Source: an uncultured delta proteobacterium (GTDB lineage: Bacteria > Desulfobacterota > RBG-13-43-22). From it: 64,000 nt of DNA. Numbering within the stretch: position 1 is the first letter of the stretch; every line of letters starts with the position of its first letter. This document shows positions 4,093-50,647 of this stretch, piece after piece. Position numbers and translations under genes: made by a program. Below the pieces are notes generated by a model. The model worked only from the letters and a program-made list of their open reading frames with translations, was not told the origin of the DNA and ran no database searches. The stretch is taken from contig CAWDKY010000015.1 in assembly GCA_963802945.1 (NCBI GenBank), positions 64,001 through 128,000 of the forward strand, read 5' to 3'.

Positions 4093-4329
4093 TTAGCCCT
4101 TCTCTTGTTTGATCAACTTGGTGATTTCTCCTTCATTGGGAAATCGTTGAACTTCAATATTTTTTTTAGAGAAGATCAACTTGCCGTTCCATTTAACATC
4201 GAAGATACCGCCACCGCCCCTGATCAATTTAATTTTTGAATCAGGATAATTGGCCTTCAATTCCGCTTCTACCCGAGAAGCTTGAGGCAAATAGTCTCAA
4301 GCACCACAATATTCAATAGAAATGTTCAT
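4093..4329 (-). CDS. SelW/SelT/SelH (Rdx) family selenoprotein, 78 aa, Sec at in-frame TGA 4297-4299
   Basis: AAGGAGG RBS, then MNISIEYCGA-U-DYLPQASRVEAEL...GGGGIFDV...RFP: CxxU motif and Rdx signature. ORF track starts only after the TGA. Confidence 0.92.
4253..4288 (-). promoter_or_regulatory. SECIS-like hairpin of the SelW gene
   Basis: GCTTCT-CGGGT-AGAAGC stem-loop, loop 21 nt 3' of the UGA, with lower stem GCCTCAA/TTGAAGGC. Confidence 0.8.
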
Positions 4330-4385
4330 AACGCCTCCTTTTTTCACCATGGGTAATTAATAGTTTGCCGAAAAACCCATTGTTA

Positions 4386-14091: not shown

Positions 14092-14717
14092 GTGTGCCAC
14101 GAAGCCGCACAAGAGATGAGAGGAGGTCCCTCGAAGTCGGCTTGCAGGGGTTGGCTTCAAACTACCTTAAGCTGCATTGGTCAAGAGCCATTGTGGTGAG
14201 CGTTAAGGAAAAGGCAGGGCAACGACCCTGTCAAGTGAGGATCAGGGAGGCGAGCGCAAGCGAACTATTTCTGAGGTGTCGAAATGAATTGGATGATGTC
14301 AAAACTGGGGGGCTTACTGATCCCCAGGATAAGTTCAAGGGGGACCTGTTTACTGCTTGGGCGAAATCCGGCATAAAGGTAGCGCGAACCTGATTCAGGC
14401 TCTTGTGTTGAACGTGGGAACCTGTCGTTCCGATGATAAGGGAGAAATTCAAGTGGAGGAAACCACAAGAATGAGAGTACCGATGCGGAAAACAGGGGCG
14501 GACCAACTCGTAGTAGTGTTGAAGTTCCTGTAATGGGAATGGAGCGAAGGGGTTGGATCATCCGTCCTTACTTTTTGGTCAACCAGTGATGGGAGGAGCC
14601 AGGAGGCAAGGCAAGGTTGCTATAAAAGACAACCGGATGATAGGAGCCGGATGACGGGAGACTGTCACGTCCGGATCTGTGAGGGCCTGGGGGTGAAATT
14701 CCCCCGGGCTCCTCGAC
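14092..14717 (+). mobile_element. ORF-less group II intron (IIB-like), ~626 nt
   Basis: 5' GTGTG; domain V GAGCCGGATGACGGGAGACTGTCACGTCCGGATC with AGC triad; domain VI ending CTCGAC; domain IV too short for a reverse transcriptase. Confidence 0.88.
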
Positions 14718-14906
14718 TCAACAAAAGGGAATTGAAATTTCTTGACTTTTTCCCAATTAAACGATAGAAAATCATTAATAAATTAAAAAAGTTTTCTTGT
14801 GAGCAATTTTTCTCAACCGTGAAACTGCGGGCGTTCGTAGACTTGTCGATGGTCTGTAGGCCTTATACAGAGTGTATAATTATTGTTAAACAGCAACGGA
14901 GAAGCT

Positions 14907-42200: not shown

Positions 42201-44432
42201 TCATGCCCCTAAAGGCAATTCTATGGTAAAAATGGTCCCTGTGGGGCCATTATTTTTAACTCGAATATGGCCGTGATGATCCGAGATAATAGAGCTGACA
42301 ATAGTCAATCCCAGGCCGGTCCCCCCCTTTTTGGTGGAAAAATAAGGGACAAAAAGTCGGTCTCTATCTCGGGGTGCAATCCCAATACCGGTGTCGATAA
42401 CTTCAATACGGGCCATTGCCAAAAACGGATCGTAATCGGTCCGGACCTTTATGGAACCGCCGTTTTCAACGGCTGCCACCGCATTATCCAACAAATTGAG
42501 CATCACCCTTTTCATCTGTTCCCGATCCAGGGGAAATTGGGGCAGGTTCGGTTCGGCCATAAAGGAAAAATCGATAGTTTTGTGGTTCTCCCGGTACAAA
42601 ATCAGGACTTCTTGAATAATGGCATTCAGGTCATTCAGGGACAGGGTTGTCGCCGGCAAGCGGCCAAAGGTAAAAAATTCATTGACCAGGCCAATCAATT
42701 CATCCACTTGATTGATGATGGTCTGAGTGCATTCATCAAAAATTTCTTTTTCTTTTCCTTCGGACAAAAGGTGGGAATATTTTTTACGCAAACGTTGGGC
42801 CGATAATTTGATGGGGGTCAACGGGTTTTTGATTTCATGGGCCAGGCGTCTGGCCACCTCTCTCCAGGCCGCCACCTTCTGGACTTTTTCGATCTCGGTT
42901 AAATCATCAAAGACCAGAACCATCCCTAAATTTCGTTTTTCCTCGTCCTGTAACAAGGAGACTTTCACTAATAAAGTCAATGTCTTATCCGAAAGCGGAA
43001 CTTGAATGGTTCGCTCGAGGGTCCCTCTTTTAATCAAGTCCAGATTGACCAGCAGGTCGTGAAGCATAACCTTTTGTTCAGGACGAAGCACATCCTGATA
43101 CCGTTTTCCAAGGACCTCCTCGGTCTTTAATCGAAGCATTTCCCTGGCCGAGTGGTTAATGGTGCTGATCCGTCCATCGGCATCTATGGAAATAACCCCG
43201 GTTCCGATATTGGCCAGGACCGTCTCCATGTATTGTTTCCGTTGATTGATTTCCTCGGTGCTCTTCCATAATTTTTGATAGGTCTGTTCGATCTCTTCCT
43301 TGCCTTTTCTTAAATCGGAAGTCATTTTATTGAAGGAACTAACCAACAAGCCGAATTCATCTTTGGCCTCCAAGTCAATGGAAAAGTCATAGTCGCCCTG
43401 GGCGATCCTCAAGGTCCCTTCGGCCAGCTTTTGGATCGGGACCGTCATCCCTTTGGCCAGGTAAAAGCCAAACCAAGTGGCGGAAAAAAGGATCAATAAG
43501 GAGACGATGGAAAGAACGATCAGATAGATGAATTTAATGGGGTTTTTCAACATCTGCATCTGCCGATACCCTTCCAGGCCAGTAGAAATGGTTTCCATTT
43601 TTTTGAGTAAGACCCTCGGAAAATAGGAAGCGACCACCACGGTAGCCAGGGTTTTCCGGGCCTGGAAATTATCCCAGACCGGAACCCCGGCAACAAAAAA
43701 ATCCCCCTCCGAAGTGGATTGTACCTCGGAAATTCCCTTGGGCTGAAAGCCTTTTTGTATAAGACTTAGGGGTGGTTCTTTAAAGAATTGCAGATAGGTC
43801 TCTGAAGTCACGACACGAACTTTTTGTTCCAGATTGGGCAAATAAAGGCCGACCCAGGCCAATCCGTATTCCTGACGTTTGTCCTGGATATTCCGTATGA
43901 TCCCTTCCTGATCGTTTTTGGTTATAAGGCCGGACTGACTCAGATCAAGACTAAGTTGTTGGGCATATATCCGGGTTCCCCGCTGGGAAGCCTGATAATA
44001 GGCCCGGCCCACGTCGACAGAGTCCTGCAGGGATTTCTCGATATGAATATTAAACGAGTAATCCATGCCCATGGCCATGAATTCATAGGCGATAAAAAAC
44101 AGGACGATGGTCGGCACCAGAGAAAGGGTGATAAATCCGATGATTAACCGGGTCCGGATCTTTGATCCCAGGATCTTTCGTCTTCTTTCGGTGACCAGCT
44201 TAAGCAGGTTTCGCACGACCAAAAAGATCAACAGGAAAAGCAAAATAATGTTGACGTTGATTAAAGCAAAAAGGATGACCCGTTGGGATAGGGAAAAGGG
44301 GAAATCGGGCCGAAGGATATTAGTTTCCCAAAAGGTCAGTCCGAGGACCACCAGGATGGTGATAATGATAATCAAGCGTTCTCTTTTTTTTCGCCGCTGT
44401 TCTTTTTGTTCTTCTGATAAAAGGGGGTTCAT
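42201..44432 (-). CDS. NtrY-like HAMP/PAS sensor histidine kinase
   Basis: TM segments, HAMP, PAS, AWREVARRLAHEIKNPLTPIKLSAQRL, HATPase; start set at ATG 44432. Confidence 0.92.
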   Translation of the reverse strand: MNPLLSEEQKEQRRKKRERLIIIITILVVLGLTFWETNILRPDFPFSLSQRVILFALINVNIILLFLLIFLVVRNLLKLVTERRRKILGSKIRTRLIIGFITLSLVPTIVLFFIAYEFMAMGMDYSFNIHIEKSLQDSVDVGRAYYQASQRGTRIYAQQLSLDLSQSGLITKNDQEGIIRNIQDKRQEYGLAWVGLYLPNLEQKVRVVTSETYLQFFKEPPLSLIQKGFQPKGISEVQSTSEGDFFVAGVPVWDNFQARKTLATVVVASYFPRVLLKKMETISTGLEGYRQMQMLKNPIKFIYLIVLSIVSLLILFSATWFGFYLAKGMTVPIQKLAEGTLRIAQGDYDFSIDLEAKDEFGLLVSSFNKMTSDLRKGKEEIEQTYQKLWKSTEEINQRKQYMETVLANIGTGVISIDADGRISTINHSAREMLRLKTEEVLGKRYQDVLRPEQKVMLHDLLVNLDLIKRGTLERTIQVPLSDKTLTLLVKVSLLQDEEKRNLGMVLVFDDLTEIEKVQKVAAWREVARRLAHEIKNPLTPIKLSAQRLRKKYSHLLSEGKEKEIFDECTQTIINQVDELIGLVNEFFTFGRLPATTLSLNDLNAIIQEVLILYRENHKTIDFSFMAEPNLPQFPLDREQMKRVMLNLLDNAVAAVENGGSIKVRTDYDPFLAMARIEVIDTGIGIAPRDRDRLFVPYFSTKKGGTGLGLTIVSSIISDHHGHIRVKNNGPTGTIFTIELPLGA

Positions 44433-44460
44433 GGACCTACCGGAGAAGGGAGTTCCTCTA

Positions 44461-45057
44461 TTAATAGATGAAATCCACTTGATACCAATCCGTTTCAAAA
44501 TCCCATAAGGAAACAAAAAACAAAAGGTAATGGAGGTATAAAGGAAGCCTGACTTTATTAAGCTCTGCCTTTATCCGTAATTGATACTGGTTGTTCCTTT
44601 CCAGGGCCTGAAGAGGGATCAGTTGAATATTACTGACATCGGCCATCATCTCCTGGGCTTTAGAAAATTCCTTGACGACAAAAATCTGATTGCCCCGTTC
44701 GCTTAATTGAATGGAATATTCATCCCTTAGAGAATCATATTTAACAGTATGATGTAATTTTAGAGAGGCGATACGTTTATTGGGCCAAATGGAACGGGGT
44801 TTATATAGTTCAACCAGGAAGGTAAAGGTGGTTGGTATCCCATTGTGGATCGCTTTATTCATTTCGGGCGTAAAACAGCCTTTGGTAAAAAAATAAACCA
44901 ATAGATGGTCCTGATTATTGGTGACAATACTATCGGCAATTTGGGCTTGTTTGCTGAAGGCCGTTATTGGGCCGGAGAGAAGCAAGGAAAGAAAAATCAG
45001 GGAAACACCGAGAATTTTCAGTAAAGAAGAACGCTTTTCCAAAATAATTCGCTTCAT
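44461..45057 (-). CDS. DUF4390-like periplasmic protein
   Basis: Signal peptide, GIPTTFTF, SLWDFETDW; usual position upstream of an ntrY-like kinase. Confidence 0.8.
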   Translation of the reverse strand: MKRIILEKRSSLLKILGVSLIFLSLLLSGPITAFSKQAQIADSIVTNNQDHLLVYFFTKGCFTPEMNKAIHNGIPTTFTFLVELYKPRSIWPNKRIASLKLHHTVKYDSLRDEYSIQLSERGNQIFVVKEFSKAQEMMADVSNIQLIPLQALERNNQYQLRIKAELNKVRLPLYLHYLLFFVSLWDFETDWYQVDFIY

Positions 45058-45306
45058 TATTCTATAGTATCAAAAAGACAAAAAAATGCAAGCCCTTTCC
45101 AATCCGGCGACCTGATGGACATTATAGGAGAAGTTGGTTTTAAAAGACCTCCCTGGAGCCCAATTACCAAGAGGCTGTTTTTCCCCTTTCCAGCGGTTGT
45201 ATTCTGAATGGTCAGGTAGTTAAAATTTTGAAGAACGGCTGCAACGATTTTCTTCAGAAACATTCGCCATGGGCGAGTTTTTTAGAAAAATACGGGAAGT
45301 GCTGGG

Positions 45307-45459
45307 CTAGACCTTGTCTATATTATTTTCTTTGTCTTGCCCTTCAACCTGGCAAGAAGAGGAAGGCATTCAACCTTGTATTCCAAGCTTCGGAAAAATC
45401 CACCGATTCAAAGCATACCACCCAGCGATAATAATCAATAACCAGATAATCGTTTTCAT
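45307..45459 (-). CDS. candidate 50-aa single-TM selenoprotein (Sec30 at TGA 45370-45372)
   Basis: AGGAG RBS; MKTIIWLLIIIAGWYALNRWIFPKLGIQG-U-MPSSSCQVEGQDKENNIDKV; hairpin TCTTGCC-AGGTTGAAG-GGCAAGA with loop 19 nt after UGA. Confidence 0.65.
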
Positions 45460-45513
45460 TTTCACTCCTAAAAAATATTAAGAACGCACGGTTCTTATTA
45501 TTACTTACGATGC

Positions 45514-45720
45514 TCAGGAAAATCCAGAAGAAGATGGACCGCAGGTGGAAGGCAATGGAATTTCACCGGTTTGTCCTCCTGCCTGGGAAAAAGTCGAAAG
45601 CAATCGATCCACCTTTTCCCCTTTACAAAAAGGACACTCAATGCCCTCCTTTTTTGAATTCCAGACTATCTTTTTAAATATCCGGTCACATTCTAAACAA
45701 CGATATTCATAAATAGGCAT
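45514..45720 (-). CDS. FmdB-family zinc-ribbon protein (possible Sec read-through to 45505)
   Basis: AAGGAGG RBS; MPIYEYRCLEC...CPFC...RLLSTF...CGPSSSGFS-TGA. Confidence 0.9.
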   Translation of the reverse strand: MPIYEYRCLECDRIFKKIVWNSKKEGIECPFCKGEKVDRLLSTFSQAGGQTGEIPLPSTCGPSSSGFS

Positions 45721-45823
45721 ACCCGCCTCCTTCGCCTCTTTTAAGAAAATAGCTAAACTCGACGTTACAAAGATTAATTGATAAGATAACAATCAATATC
45801 CGTTTGTCAAGGATTCGGCTGTC

Positions 45824-47569: not shown

Positions 47570-49297
47570 TCACGGTATCAATAAGGCAGTCATTCCGGCC
47601 AGAATAAATCCGGCGTCCACCATAGTCTCGAAAAAGACATTCCCGGGCAAAGCCCGATTTTTTTCATAAATAATGAGAAAACCAAATTGGTACAAAAGGC
47701 TGATCAGCAACCATAGACTCCAAAGGGGAAGAAGCCCTCCAAGAACTCCCGCCGACAAACCCGCCATAGTCGCCAGACTGATAATTTTCAGAACATGGAT
47801 GGTTTTTTCTTCTCCGATAATAATCGGCAGGGTTTCTTTGCCAACGATCATATCGCCCTGGATATCCAAAATATCAAAAAGACCGGAGCTGATATAGACA
47901 ATAGAACAAATGACGAAAAAAATCATTATCAGAGAAAGGTTCACCGGCTGCTGTTCGGCCATGGCCGGCATCAAGGTGGTTACAGCTCCCCACCCCAGGG
48001 CCACGGAAAGGGTTTTAGATGCCGGGAGGTCTTTTATTTTTTTCATTCTGGTAAAGCGTTGCCAAACAGTCGGCACGATTTGAAAACTGTAGAGGATGCC
48101 CAAGGCGCTCAAGGCGGCAAGGAATAGGAACGGAGCCCAGCCTAAGTGCAGGGCCAAGGCCAGGGAAATCAGGACGGCAGCAATTCCTGAAAAGAAGAAG
48201 GCGGATCGATGCCTTTGATAAAATTCAGAACGATCCGGATCGTTATATTCCGCTGCCCCCCGGTCAAGGAGGTGATTCAGGATGTGCATGGCATAAATAT
48301 TCAGGAAGGTTATGGTAAAATAAATCCAGTTCAAAGGGACTTGCCGCAGTCGGGAAGCGGTCAAACTCAGACACCCGGCCCCCAGGGCTATCATCAAATT
48401 GCTTTTTAATAAGAAACGTACCCAACTAAAAAGAAAGGTGCTCCAGGTGTATTCTCCCTGACCCTTAATCATCTCCAGTTTCTGGACCACCTTTCGAATC
48501 ATCCAGTTGGGAGTTGAAGCCCCGGCGGTAACACCCACGGTTTTGAATCGGCGGATTTCATTTTTATCCAATTGATCTTCCGTCTCTATATGAAAGCAGG
48601 GAGTGCCCACGGATTCGGCGATCGCCGCTAGGCGCCGGGTATTTCCGCTGTTATAACCTCCCACAACCACCAGTCCATCCACTTGCCGAGCCAGATCCCG
48701 CACTTCTTCCTGCCGTTCGTGAGTGGCATTGCAGATGGTATTAAAAATCAGACTGTTGGGAAATCGCTCTCTGATTTTTTCCACGGCCGCCTGAAAAAGG
48801 GATTCGTCCTGAGTCGTCTGGGCCACCACAATCACCTGTTTCAAATCCGGAAGGTCTTTAACCTGATCCGGATGGGTCAGGATAATTCCCCTGTCTTGAG
48901 AATAGCCCAGCAGTCCTATGACTTCCGGATGATCCCGATCACCGACAATGATCGGGGTGTATCCTTCCTGGGCATATTTCTTGATGATGGCCTGGACCTT
49001 GATCACCCTTGGACAAGTGGCGTCCACGATGGTACACCCCATCTTTTTCAGCCGATCGTGATCCTGAGGAGATATGCCGTGGGCTCGGATAACAACCGTG
49101 CCGGTCTGCCCCTCTTGAACGGGGTCCAGGATACGGATGCCTTTTTCCCCCAGCATCGATAAGACCTGAGGATTATGGATCAAGGGTCCAAAGGTGTAAA
49201 CAGGGTCGGGATAATGGTAATTGGCCTCCAGGGCCATTTCCATAGCCCGGCGGACGCCCATACAAAATCCGGCCTTTTTTGCCAGACGGACTTTCAT
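47570..49297 (-). CDS. ispH: IspH fused to a UbiA-like prenyltransferase domain
   Basis: AGFCMGV, IHN, DATCP, TICNAT, SGNT, TAGASTP; then multi-TM domain with NHLLD and DILDIQGD motifs. Confidence 0.93.
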   Translation of the reverse strand: MKVRLAKKAGFCMGVRRAMEMALEANYHYPDPVYTFGPLIHNPQVLSMLGEKGIRILDPVQEGQTGTVVIRAHGISPQDHDRLKKMGCTIVDATCPRVIKVQAIIKKYAQEGYTPIIVGDRDHPEVIGLLGYSQDRGIILTHPDQVKDLPDLKQVIVVAQTTQDESLFQAAVEKIRERFPNSLIFNTICNATHERQEEVRDLARQVDGLVVVGGYNSGNTRRLAAIAESVGTPCFHIETEDQLDKNEIRRFKTVGVTAGASTPNWMIRKVVQKLEMIKGQGEYTWSTFLFSWVRFLLKSNLMIALGAGCLSLTASRLRQVPLNWIYFTITFLNIYAMHILNHLLDRGAAEYNDPDRSEFYQRHRSAFFFSGIAAVLISLALALHLGWAPFLFLAALSALGILYSFQIVPTVWQRFTRMKKIKDLPASKTLSVALGWGAVTTLMPAMAEQQPVNLSLIMIFFVICSIVYISSGLFDILDIQGDMIVGKETLPIIIGEEKTIHVLKIISLATMAGLSAGVLGGLLPLWSLWLLISLLYQFGFLIIYEKNRALPGNVFFETMVDAGFILAGMTALLIP

Positions 49298-50549: not shown

Positions 50550-50647
50550 GGAAGTGGAAAGCTCACTGGTGGGGCTCCCGGACTTCAAATCCGGTGTGCC
50601 GTCTGAAGAGGGCGGCAGGTGGGTTCGATTCCCATGCACTTCCGCCA
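50550..50647 (+). tRNA. selC: tRNA-Sec (UCA)
   Basis: GGAAGTG/CACTTCC acceptor, CCGGA-CTTCAAA-TCCGG anticodon arm, long variable arm, GTGGG-TTCGATT-CCCAT, GCCA end. Confidence 0.95.

Follow-up and report, generated by a model that had tools for sequence, protein, structure and literature searches.

A 64,000-nucleotide stretch of the genome of an uncultured delta proteobacterium (NCBI GenBank assembly GCA_963802945.1, contig CAWDKY010000015.1; the whole stretch is referred to as the window) carries on its minus strand, at 45459..45307, a small gene of 50 codons plus TAG that almost certainly encodes selenocysteine (Sec), through recoding of an in-frame UGA at codon 30. Taking all of the sequence evidence together, and with it the role proposed below, the best explanation is likely to be a Sec-decoded, single-pass membrane selenoprotein of 50 residues. 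The original prediction for this locus, which gave no strand, had described a ribosome-binding site, an ATG, a single transmembrane helix, an in-frame UGA and 20 further open codons to a TAG, and all of these are present on the minus strand. The ribosome-binding site AGGAG (45465..45469) stands 5 nt before the ATG (45459-45457), which opens MKTIIWLLIIIAGWYALNRWIFPKLGIQG; there follow the TGA (45372-45370), the 20 codons of MPSSSCQVEGQDKENNIDKV and the TAG (45309-45307), such that the whole gene reads MKTIIWLLIIIAGWYALNRWIFPKLGIQG-U-MPSSSCQVEGQDKENNIDKV. Upstream of the UGA a single hydrophobic helix is succeeded by NRWIFPKLGIQG, and downstream MPSSSC and a further 14 codons lead to the TAG, with the codon for Cys36 (TGC, 45352..45354), an invariant residue in an alignment of 20 sequences, lying within the 5′ arm of a hairpin.

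Both the UGA and the reading frame beyond it are conserved among relatives. When 41 related genomes were searched in six frames with stops read through (E<0.01), exactly one in-frame TGA was found in 24 of 24 places, drawn from 22 of the genomes. In the 20 loci that were read, U is codon 29-31 and the ATG follows a GGA- or AGGA-type site in most, with M1, P23, G26, U30 and C36 invariant across the alignment. Conservation continues past the UGA (e.g. UMSSSSCQVEGQD, UMTPASCPVPGRD, UMSEACSIEDR and UFKNSCRIGDS), and the differences in length between U and C are of whole codons. Scanning one genome per prokaryotic species with a pattern gave 122 confirmed stretches, from which 80 loci were kept; TGA occupies the same codon in every one of the 80, followed 4-5 residues on by a Cys in 78. 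A second scan of species genomes, seeded with 15 Cys-form sequences, confirmed 208 stretches, and the 80 loci kept from it comprise 47 Sec forms (TGA) and 33 Cys forms, mostly from Planctomycetota. Over both scans the Cys follows 4-5 residues after U in 125 of 127 Sec loci, as U-x4-C in 106 and as U-x5-C in 19; the U-x5-C motif originally proposed describes the clade of the window (the 19 loci), whereas the family at large mostly has the shorter spacing. Two Sec forms, L074 (UMVPDPKNRSG..) and L087 (UIAPANDAGS..), lack the downstream Cys and retain a hairpin after the UGA, and in some lineages Sec may act without a resolving Cys.

Homologues with Cys at position 30, which the original prediction had anticipated, exist in large numbers. 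A search of a 5.8-billion-protein collection returned 32 matches, of which 27 are open reading frames (ORFs) cut exactly at the UGA (...PKLGVST) and five are full-length with Cys in its place, whilst a profile searched against 1.84 billion cluster representatives gave 630 matches at E<=0.001. Among the 179 sequences in hand, the Sec position is occupied by Cys in 89, by a stop at the UGA in 58, by W in 22 and by G in three, the last two being expected where a pipeline has translated TGA with other code tables. The Cys forms share ...W-x-x-LNRW-x-LP-x-x-G-x-x-T-C-M-S-G-x-C, typically with the motif C-MSGA-C, and the family pattern that unites both forms is helix-LNRW-x-LP-x-x-G-x-x-T-[U/C]-M-S-x-x-C, in proteins of 45-90 residues. 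This pairing of TGA with Cys among homologues is the classical Sec/Cys signature, and the outcome by which the original prediction had proposed to be checked. By record title, Desulfobacterota make up most of the carriers in the first scan (Desulfuromonadales, Geobacteraceae, Syntrophobacterales, Desulfomonile and the isolate Desulforhabdus sp. TSK), alongside Spirochaetota/Leptospirales, Verrucomicrobiota, Planctomycetota, Acidobacteriota, Gemmatimonadota, KSB1, Cytophagia and Bacteriovoracaceae. Two metagenome-assembled genomes (MAGs) of the anammox bacterium Candidatus Kuenenia stuttgartiensis (L124, L130) carry a Sec form, ..LPRFGVQTUMSGACTRVPRDE.., which adjoins a disulfide-reductase-type gene of ~480 aa. 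The two forms also differ at the residue after the invariant Pro (LP-x-x-G; K24 in the window): 202 of 206 Sec-type sequences have Lys or Arg there, as do only 36 of 120 Cys-type sequences, W and A being common among the latter; the preference of the Sec forms could reflect phylogeny, selenolate chemistry or decoding context.

The hairpin that would direct Sec insertion lies at 45335..45357 on the minus strand. Its stem, a perfect 7 bp of TCTTGCC (45357-45351) and GGCAAGA (45341-45335), starts 12 nt after the UGA and closes a 9-nt loop, AGGTTGAAG, which begins 19 nt downstream of the UGA with G at positions 2-3; stem and loop were as the original prediction had described them when it likened the structure to a selenocysteine insertion sequence (SECIS). 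In the model of the bacterial element (bSECIS) that underlies the bSECISearch literature, a hairpin lies just 3′ of the UGA, with its apical loop ~16-37 nt downstream and a G in the first loop bases, and the geometry and loop composition of the candidate element fit that model. Hairpins were scored sequence by sequence in 125 distinct Sec-form sequences, with 33 Cys-form sequences as control. The mean fold z of the segment from +6 to +50 is -0.91 in Sec forms against +0.06 in Cys forms (Mann-Whitney p 1.3e-6, from related sequences that are not independent). Perfect stems reach at least 6 bp in 82% of Sec forms and 27% of Cys forms, and at least 7 bp in 57% and 12%, respectively; the start of the loop falls 19-24 nt past the codon in 109 of 124 Sec forms as against 5 of 30 Cys forms, and G falls within the first two loop bases in 92% versus 53%. 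Within the 124 Sec-form hairpins there are 75 distinct 5′ arms, the commonest loops being GGA, GTC, GTT and TGGAT. An alignment of the clade of the window, gap-free and comprising 16 sequences (including a second copy in the same genome), has the seven pairs formed in 97.3% of cells, compared with 34-61% once the partner has been shifted by 1-3 columns. Pair 18:36 swaps from C-G to U-A in five of these sequences, and because each of its columns falls on a synonymous third position (TCT/TCC for Ser, CAA/CAG for Gln), selection on the protein cannot account for the covariation. The hairpin has thus been kept among relatives through compensatory changes, and since no T-run follows the stem in the window, it is not a terminator.

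Much of the machinery for Sec insertion is encoded nearby or elsewhere in the genome. A tRNA-Sec with anticodon TCA, which the original prediction had placed about 5 kb away, lies at 50550..50647 on the plus strand, 5.2 kb from the small gene (ARAGORN; Rfam RF01852, 74.3 bits), and the same genome holds selA (627 bits) and a selD with an in-frame TGA of its own. Of the suggested check of co-occurrence with selABCD, the part made with selA proved uninformative as a discriminator, selA being found in 37 of the 41 related genomes. The gene whose hairpin had served as comparator is real: a SelW/Rdx-like selenoprotein gene of 85 codons at 4093-4350 (minus strand; ..IEYCGAUDYL.., motif CGAU), with its UGA at 4299-4297 and a hairpin loop starting 21 nt downstream.

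Certain observations nevertheless weigh against recoding. On their own, the 66 nt that follow the UGA of the window fold at -12.4 kcal/mol against a shuffle mean of -12.56 (z 0.06), and 98 of 200 dinucleotide shuffles fold at least as well; a single-sequence hairpin of this kind is not beyond chance, and the significance of the hairpin comes only from comparison with relatives. RNAalifold, applied to a MAFFT alignment of 81 post-UGA segments, returned no consensus structure, as the hairpins are out of register and their loop sizes vary. The ratio of non-synonymous to synonymous change (pN/pS) is higher after the UGA (0.61-0.68) than before it (0.37-0.41) and, with synonymous sites near saturation, supports coding only weakly, whilst the relatedness of the sequences means that the statistics overstate support in general. 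A look-up of RNA runs listed none that contains the stretch. Finally, selB is split by two frameshifts into three overlapping frames of 254, 160 and 260 aa (contig C30, L181:220-2139, minus strand). The break may be due either to assembly indels or to a real pseudogene, and if the frameshifts are real rather than assembly errors, the organism could not insert Sec.

Were the UGA an ordinary stop, the product would be a 29-residue membrane peptide and the hairpin a terminator or unrelated to the gene. Gene callers do end the ORF at the UGA in the 27 truncated database entries, the hairpin of the window alone is not significant, selB is frameshifted in the assembly, and scarce selenium leads to termination at Sec UGA codons, which here would give exactly the 29-residue peptide. 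An ordinary stop is nonetheless very improbable, and is already contradicted by the comparative data: residue conservation, the invariant Cys and whole-codon indels all continue past the UGA, homologues with Cys at this position run on, and every Sec-type locus has TGA, never TAA or TAG, with the Ser-Cys segment conserved, which is the reverse of the homologues ending in TAA or TAG that the original prediction had said would count against it. Termination by the hairpin is likewise at odds with the missing T-run, and the Cys forms do without the hairpin. More improbable still is the translation of UGA as Trp or another residue, whether through a near-cognate tRNA or through a variant code. The 22 database entries with W and three with G, which might be taken to favour it, show only that pipelines used other tables; homologues align Cys rather than Trp with this codon, it is only with TGA that a positioned SECIS-like hairpin occurs, in some family genes TGA serves both as the Sec codon and as the true stop, and tRNA-Sec, selA and selD are all present.

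It is worth considering whether the family already has a name. The window peptide has no Pfam-A match at E<=1, and in NCBIfam 20.0 it meets only P2_Rz1, at a chance-level 13.6 bits against a cut-off of 27; in ten Cys forms, the shared domain is covered by none of the Pfam-A or NCBIfam 20.0 families. The statement in the original prediction that the peptide could not be assigned to a named family therefore stands. Two other identities were dropped: a phage Rz1-like lipoprotein, in view of the chance level of the P2_Rz1 match, and a precursor of a ribosomally synthesised and post-translationally modified peptide, there being no maturase-type neighbour among the tallied neighbour genes. Database copies are unnamed or labelled 'hypothetical protein', and the nearest ESM Atlas cluster, a lead at most, is an unnamed Planctomycetota 'hypothetical protein' (score 0.84) without a Pfam family. 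Compared with Sec/Cys selenoproteins that depend on bSECIS elements, such as the SelW-like (CxxU) and thioredoxin-fold (UxxC) proteins, the small protein is alike in its UGA with a downstream hairpin bearing G at the loop start, in its Cys homologues, in a second Cys near the Sec and in its occurrence in Sec-rich anaerobes. It differs in being a small protein without a thioredoxin fold or globular domain, consisting of one helix and a tail of ~20-60 residues, in its U-x4-C or U-x5-C spacing as opposed to UxxC or CxxU, and in its membrane anchor. In layout it resembles the FeoB-associated Cys-rich membrane protein (PF12669), very small and with one N-terminal helix and a Cys-containing tail; however, there is no Pfam match at E<=1, and the LNRW-x-LP-x-x-G signature with a single C/U-x4-5-C pair is specific to the present family. 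No feoB was noted among the tallied neighbours.

Catalogues of selenoproteins point in the same direction. Table 1 of a review of May 2026 (PMC13188914) lists 119 prokaryotic selenoprotein families and subfamilies and, judged by the descriptions in that table, none is a single-helix U-x4/5-C microprotein; nor do the NCBIfam and Pfam models of its small motif-defined families match. Of these, TsoA (LULAXC, NF045695), OS_HP3 dual-CXXC (NF041197), CYCXC (PF13798) and KCU-star/DUF466 (NF033934) are alike in being small, in having a short Sec/Cys motif and in being known from genomics only, whilst, going by the same table, the motif, spacing and N-terminal helix of the small protein are different and no model matches at E<=1. 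A search of full-text literature, which did not extend to survey supplements, gave nothing on such a protein. That the family has been described already, in survey supplements or under another name, and is therefore known and not new, is quite unlikely. Large selenoproteome surveys do exist, and section 6 of the review cites one of more than 44,000 groundwater MAGs with 'potentially novel candidate selenoproteins', as yet unvalidated; the relatives of the window include groundwater MAGs. Against a prior description stand the lack of a fitting entry among the 119 described in Table 1, the failure of NCBIfam 20.0, which carries models cited in that table, to match beyond chance level and of Pfam-A to match at all, and the anonymity of the database copies and the ESM Atlas cluster in a literature that is silent. 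The original prediction holds in both observation and interpretation, the small gene representing a widely conserved, unannotated family of predicted selenoproteins that is without a name, with a known mechanism of Sec insertion and an unusual architecture.

Clues to function come from the neighbouring genes, and in the window from the gene directly upstream. This gene, at 45514..45720 on the minus strand, encodes an FmdB-family zinc-ribbon protein (68 aa from MPIYEYRC) with CxxC...CPxC and a C-terminal ..STCGPSSSGFS tail, and matches TIGR02605 at 51.8 bits (cut-off 31.3) and PF09723 at 47.5 bits. In related genomes, FmdB and the small gene are adjacent in 18 of 20 loci, FmdB lying upstream in 17 and downstream in one. 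In the 160 loci from both species scans (80 + 80), on which all of the following neighbour tallies are based, a regex-based count placed FmdB within 400 bp in 28, all of them Sec forms and including Gemmatimonadota and Cytophagia records, and found none near Cys-form loci; FmdB as a universal partner was rejected on these grounds. An alignment of 29 partners has C8, C11, C29 and C32 invariant, and besides these four zinc-ribbon Cys the partner proteins keep an extra near-invariant Cys and a C-terminal Phe (..SCGPSSSGFS). FmdB zinc-ribbon proteins (TIGR02605) resemble the small protein in being small, Cys-rich and obscure in role, and they are catalogued as a selenoprotein family with UxxU forms; unlike it they are soluble, their motif is CxxC...CPxC, and the partner copy has Cys and not Sec, an in-frame TGA being found in none of 28 partner FmdB genes. 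The pair of FmdB and small gene has been duplicated as a unit on another contig of this genome (C32, L184:2860-3275, minus strand), with 74.7% identity over 438 bp only. The peptide of the second copy is 81% identical, its hairpin is a compensatory version (TCCTGCC/GGCAGGA), and it is flanked by IS110-type and REP/Y1-type transposase genes; given an estimated contamination of 6.7% in this genome, it may stem from a second strain.

In other lineages the small gene keeps different company. Neighbours of the YgaP-like, rhodanese and disulfide reductase classes were recounted with purpose-built hidden Markov models. A YgaP-like_TM gene (PF11127, matched at 49.9 and 54.7 bits) lies within 300 bp in 20 of the 160 loci, stop and start often overlapping, a rhodanese within the same distance in 17, and a pyridine-nucleotide disulfide reductase in 14, most of which also have a rhodanese match; within 1.5 kb, one or more of the three is present in 34 loci (21 Sec, 13 Cys). 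These counts replace a first 'disulfide reductase + rhodanese' cluster of 32 loci, which was rejected as a single-linkage mixture: only 13 loci have within 300 bp a member of 400 aa or more, the small members being YgaP-like_TM proteins. YgaP-like_TM (PF11127, DUF2892) and the membrane rhodanese YgaP share with the small protein their small size, membrane location and conserved Cys, and have ties to rhodanese and ArsR-type regulators, but they are neighbours and not homologues, with two helices and an N-[WF]-C-P motif, and the window peptide does not match PF11127. A short soluble zf-HC2 protein (zinc anti-sigma; HxxxCxxC in the one inspected, L123) occurs within 300 bp in 25 loci, an ArsR-family regulator in 14 and a thioredoxin in 10, all of the last being Cys forms, these three counts being of single-linkage clusters with one or two Pfam-checked members each, one cluster of which kind proved mixed. 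RND pump genes lie within 1.5 kb in 13 loci. In two proteins the family domain is itself fused to an enzyme of this kind, namely to a thioredoxin (P0138) and to a rhodanese (P0180).

From these associations a role can be proposed in outline. The number of Lys and Arg residues averages 1.85 after the helix and 0.49 before it, and is larger after it in 84% of 151 sequences, from which an N-terminus outside and a cytoplasmic tail are rather more probable than the opposite orientation. On the comparative evidence, the hairpin starting 12 nt downstream, with its G-containing loop at 19 nt, directs Sec insertion at codon 30, and translation continues through the invariant Cys (U-x5-C here) into a short charged tail. 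The helix would anchor the peptide with its N-terminus outside, placing the Sec...Cys pair at the cytoplasmic face of the membrane, where it might cycle between selenol/thiol and selenenylsulfide, or carry a sulfane sulfur or selenium atom. The peptide would then be a membrane-tethered partner of soluble thiol/sulfur enzymes, the likely partner here being the co-encoded FmdB zinc-ribbon protein and those in other lineages perhaps YgaP-type membrane proteins, rhodaneses, rhodanese-fused disulfide reductases or thioredoxins. For a membrane-tethered role in redox chemistry or sulfur relay, as judged from sequence and gene context, the probability falls a little short of even. The loose clustering behind the neighbour counts other than the recounted ones weighs against it, as does the want of a universal neighbour, 39 of the 160 loci having none of ten tallied classes (YgaP-like proteins were classed later). 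The 64-kb window itself has no YgaP, rhodanese or disulfide-reductase gene, P0138 and P0180 are each known from a single short contig, and some of the neighbouring thioredoxins look like exported lipoproteins, which would better fit a periplasmic motif.

The original prediction had left the choice between a redox and a metal-binding peptide open; the role remains conjectural, although it now has the backing of gene neighbourhoods and two fusion proteins. As a metal site, the Sec...Cys pair might, for instance, bring together two chains whose 2 Se + 2 S would ligate Zn, Cu, Hg, Fe or an Fe-S cluster at the surface of the membrane, serving in the sensing, storage or hand-over of a metal or metalloid; this, the main alternative, is considered unlikely. 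It would accord with the 14 loci that have ArsR within 300 bp and the 13 with RND pump genes within 1.5 kb, with a partner here that is a zinc-ribbon protein bearing an extra near-invariant C-terminal Cys, with the capacity of a C-x4-C of small residues (MSGA) to chelate metal, and with the fact that several selenoprotein families catalogued in Table 1 of PMC13188914 bind metal. However, the most specific neighbours and both fusions involve thiol/sulfur enzymes, namely thioredoxin, rhodanese, YgaP-like_TM and the rhodanese-fused disulfide reductase. Furthermore, the ArsR family also includes persulfide sensors.

The immediate surroundings of the gene contain further elements that may bear on its expression. 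A consensus scan for promoters (three sites found against 1.6 expected) marked a pattern match upstream of the FmdB gene, TTGACA, 16 nt and TATCTT with TG (45783..45810, minus strand), a possible start for a two-gene transcript, and a corresponding scan for terminators (two found against 1.6 expected) marked a terminator-like hairpin at 45264..45276 (minus strand), ~30 nt past the TAG and likewise a pattern match only, which is a possible end for the unit of FmdB and small gene. Between the FmdB stop and the ribosome-binding site, the sequence reads as an intergenic hairpin, AAGAAC-CGTGC-GTTCTT (45480..45496, minus strand), followed by the T-rich AATATTTTTT. The terminator scan did not report it; relatives repeat its 3′ arm together with the ribosome-binding site (GTTCTTAAGGA) ahead of their ATG, and it is possibly an attenuator, a weak terminator or an element of translational control. 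Downstream of the small gene are a DUF4390 gene (PF14334, 148 bits; 44461-45057) and then a large sensor histidine kinase (42201-44516), both on the minus strand, an arrangement common only to the closest relatives and hence probably a separate unit. Elsewhere in the window, group II intron RNA domains lie at 14118-14722 on the plus strand (Rfam RF01999, 107.6 bits; RF00029, 52.8 bits), and a 575-aa ORF at 47570-49297 on the minus strand appears, from the ORF list alone, to be a fusion of an IspH/LytB-like N-terminal half to a C-terminal half formed by a multi-helix membrane domain.

Because gene callers either overlook the gene or truncate it after residue 29, annotation has been blind to a family that occurs in hundreds of species genomes. 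It is possible, if doubtful, that the family constitutes an undescribed and unusually short class of selenoprotein, a membrane relay for redox equivalents or sulfane sulfur that would link soluble sulfurtransferases, persulfide and disulfide reductases and thioredoxins (FmdB here) to the membrane. Were this relay to be real, FmdB and YgaP-type proteins would gain their first defined partner, and the Lys or Arg after the invariant Pro would reflect selenolate chemistry or a requirement of Sec decoding. The class would extend from Desulfobacterota to Planctomycetota (including the anammox Kuenenia), Spirochaetota, Verrucomicrobiota, Acidobacteriota and others. Through its recurrent neighbours the family also opens a way into several small proteins that are poorly understood, FmdB zinc ribbons and DUF2892 above all, and its Sec and Cys forms offer both a clean natural pair for study and a ready source of positives and negatives for SECIS prediction in very short ORFs. 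With this family, the bacterial selenoproteome would gain a membrane-anchored microprotein, and the use of Sec would be extended in Planctomycetota, Candidatus Kuenenia among them.

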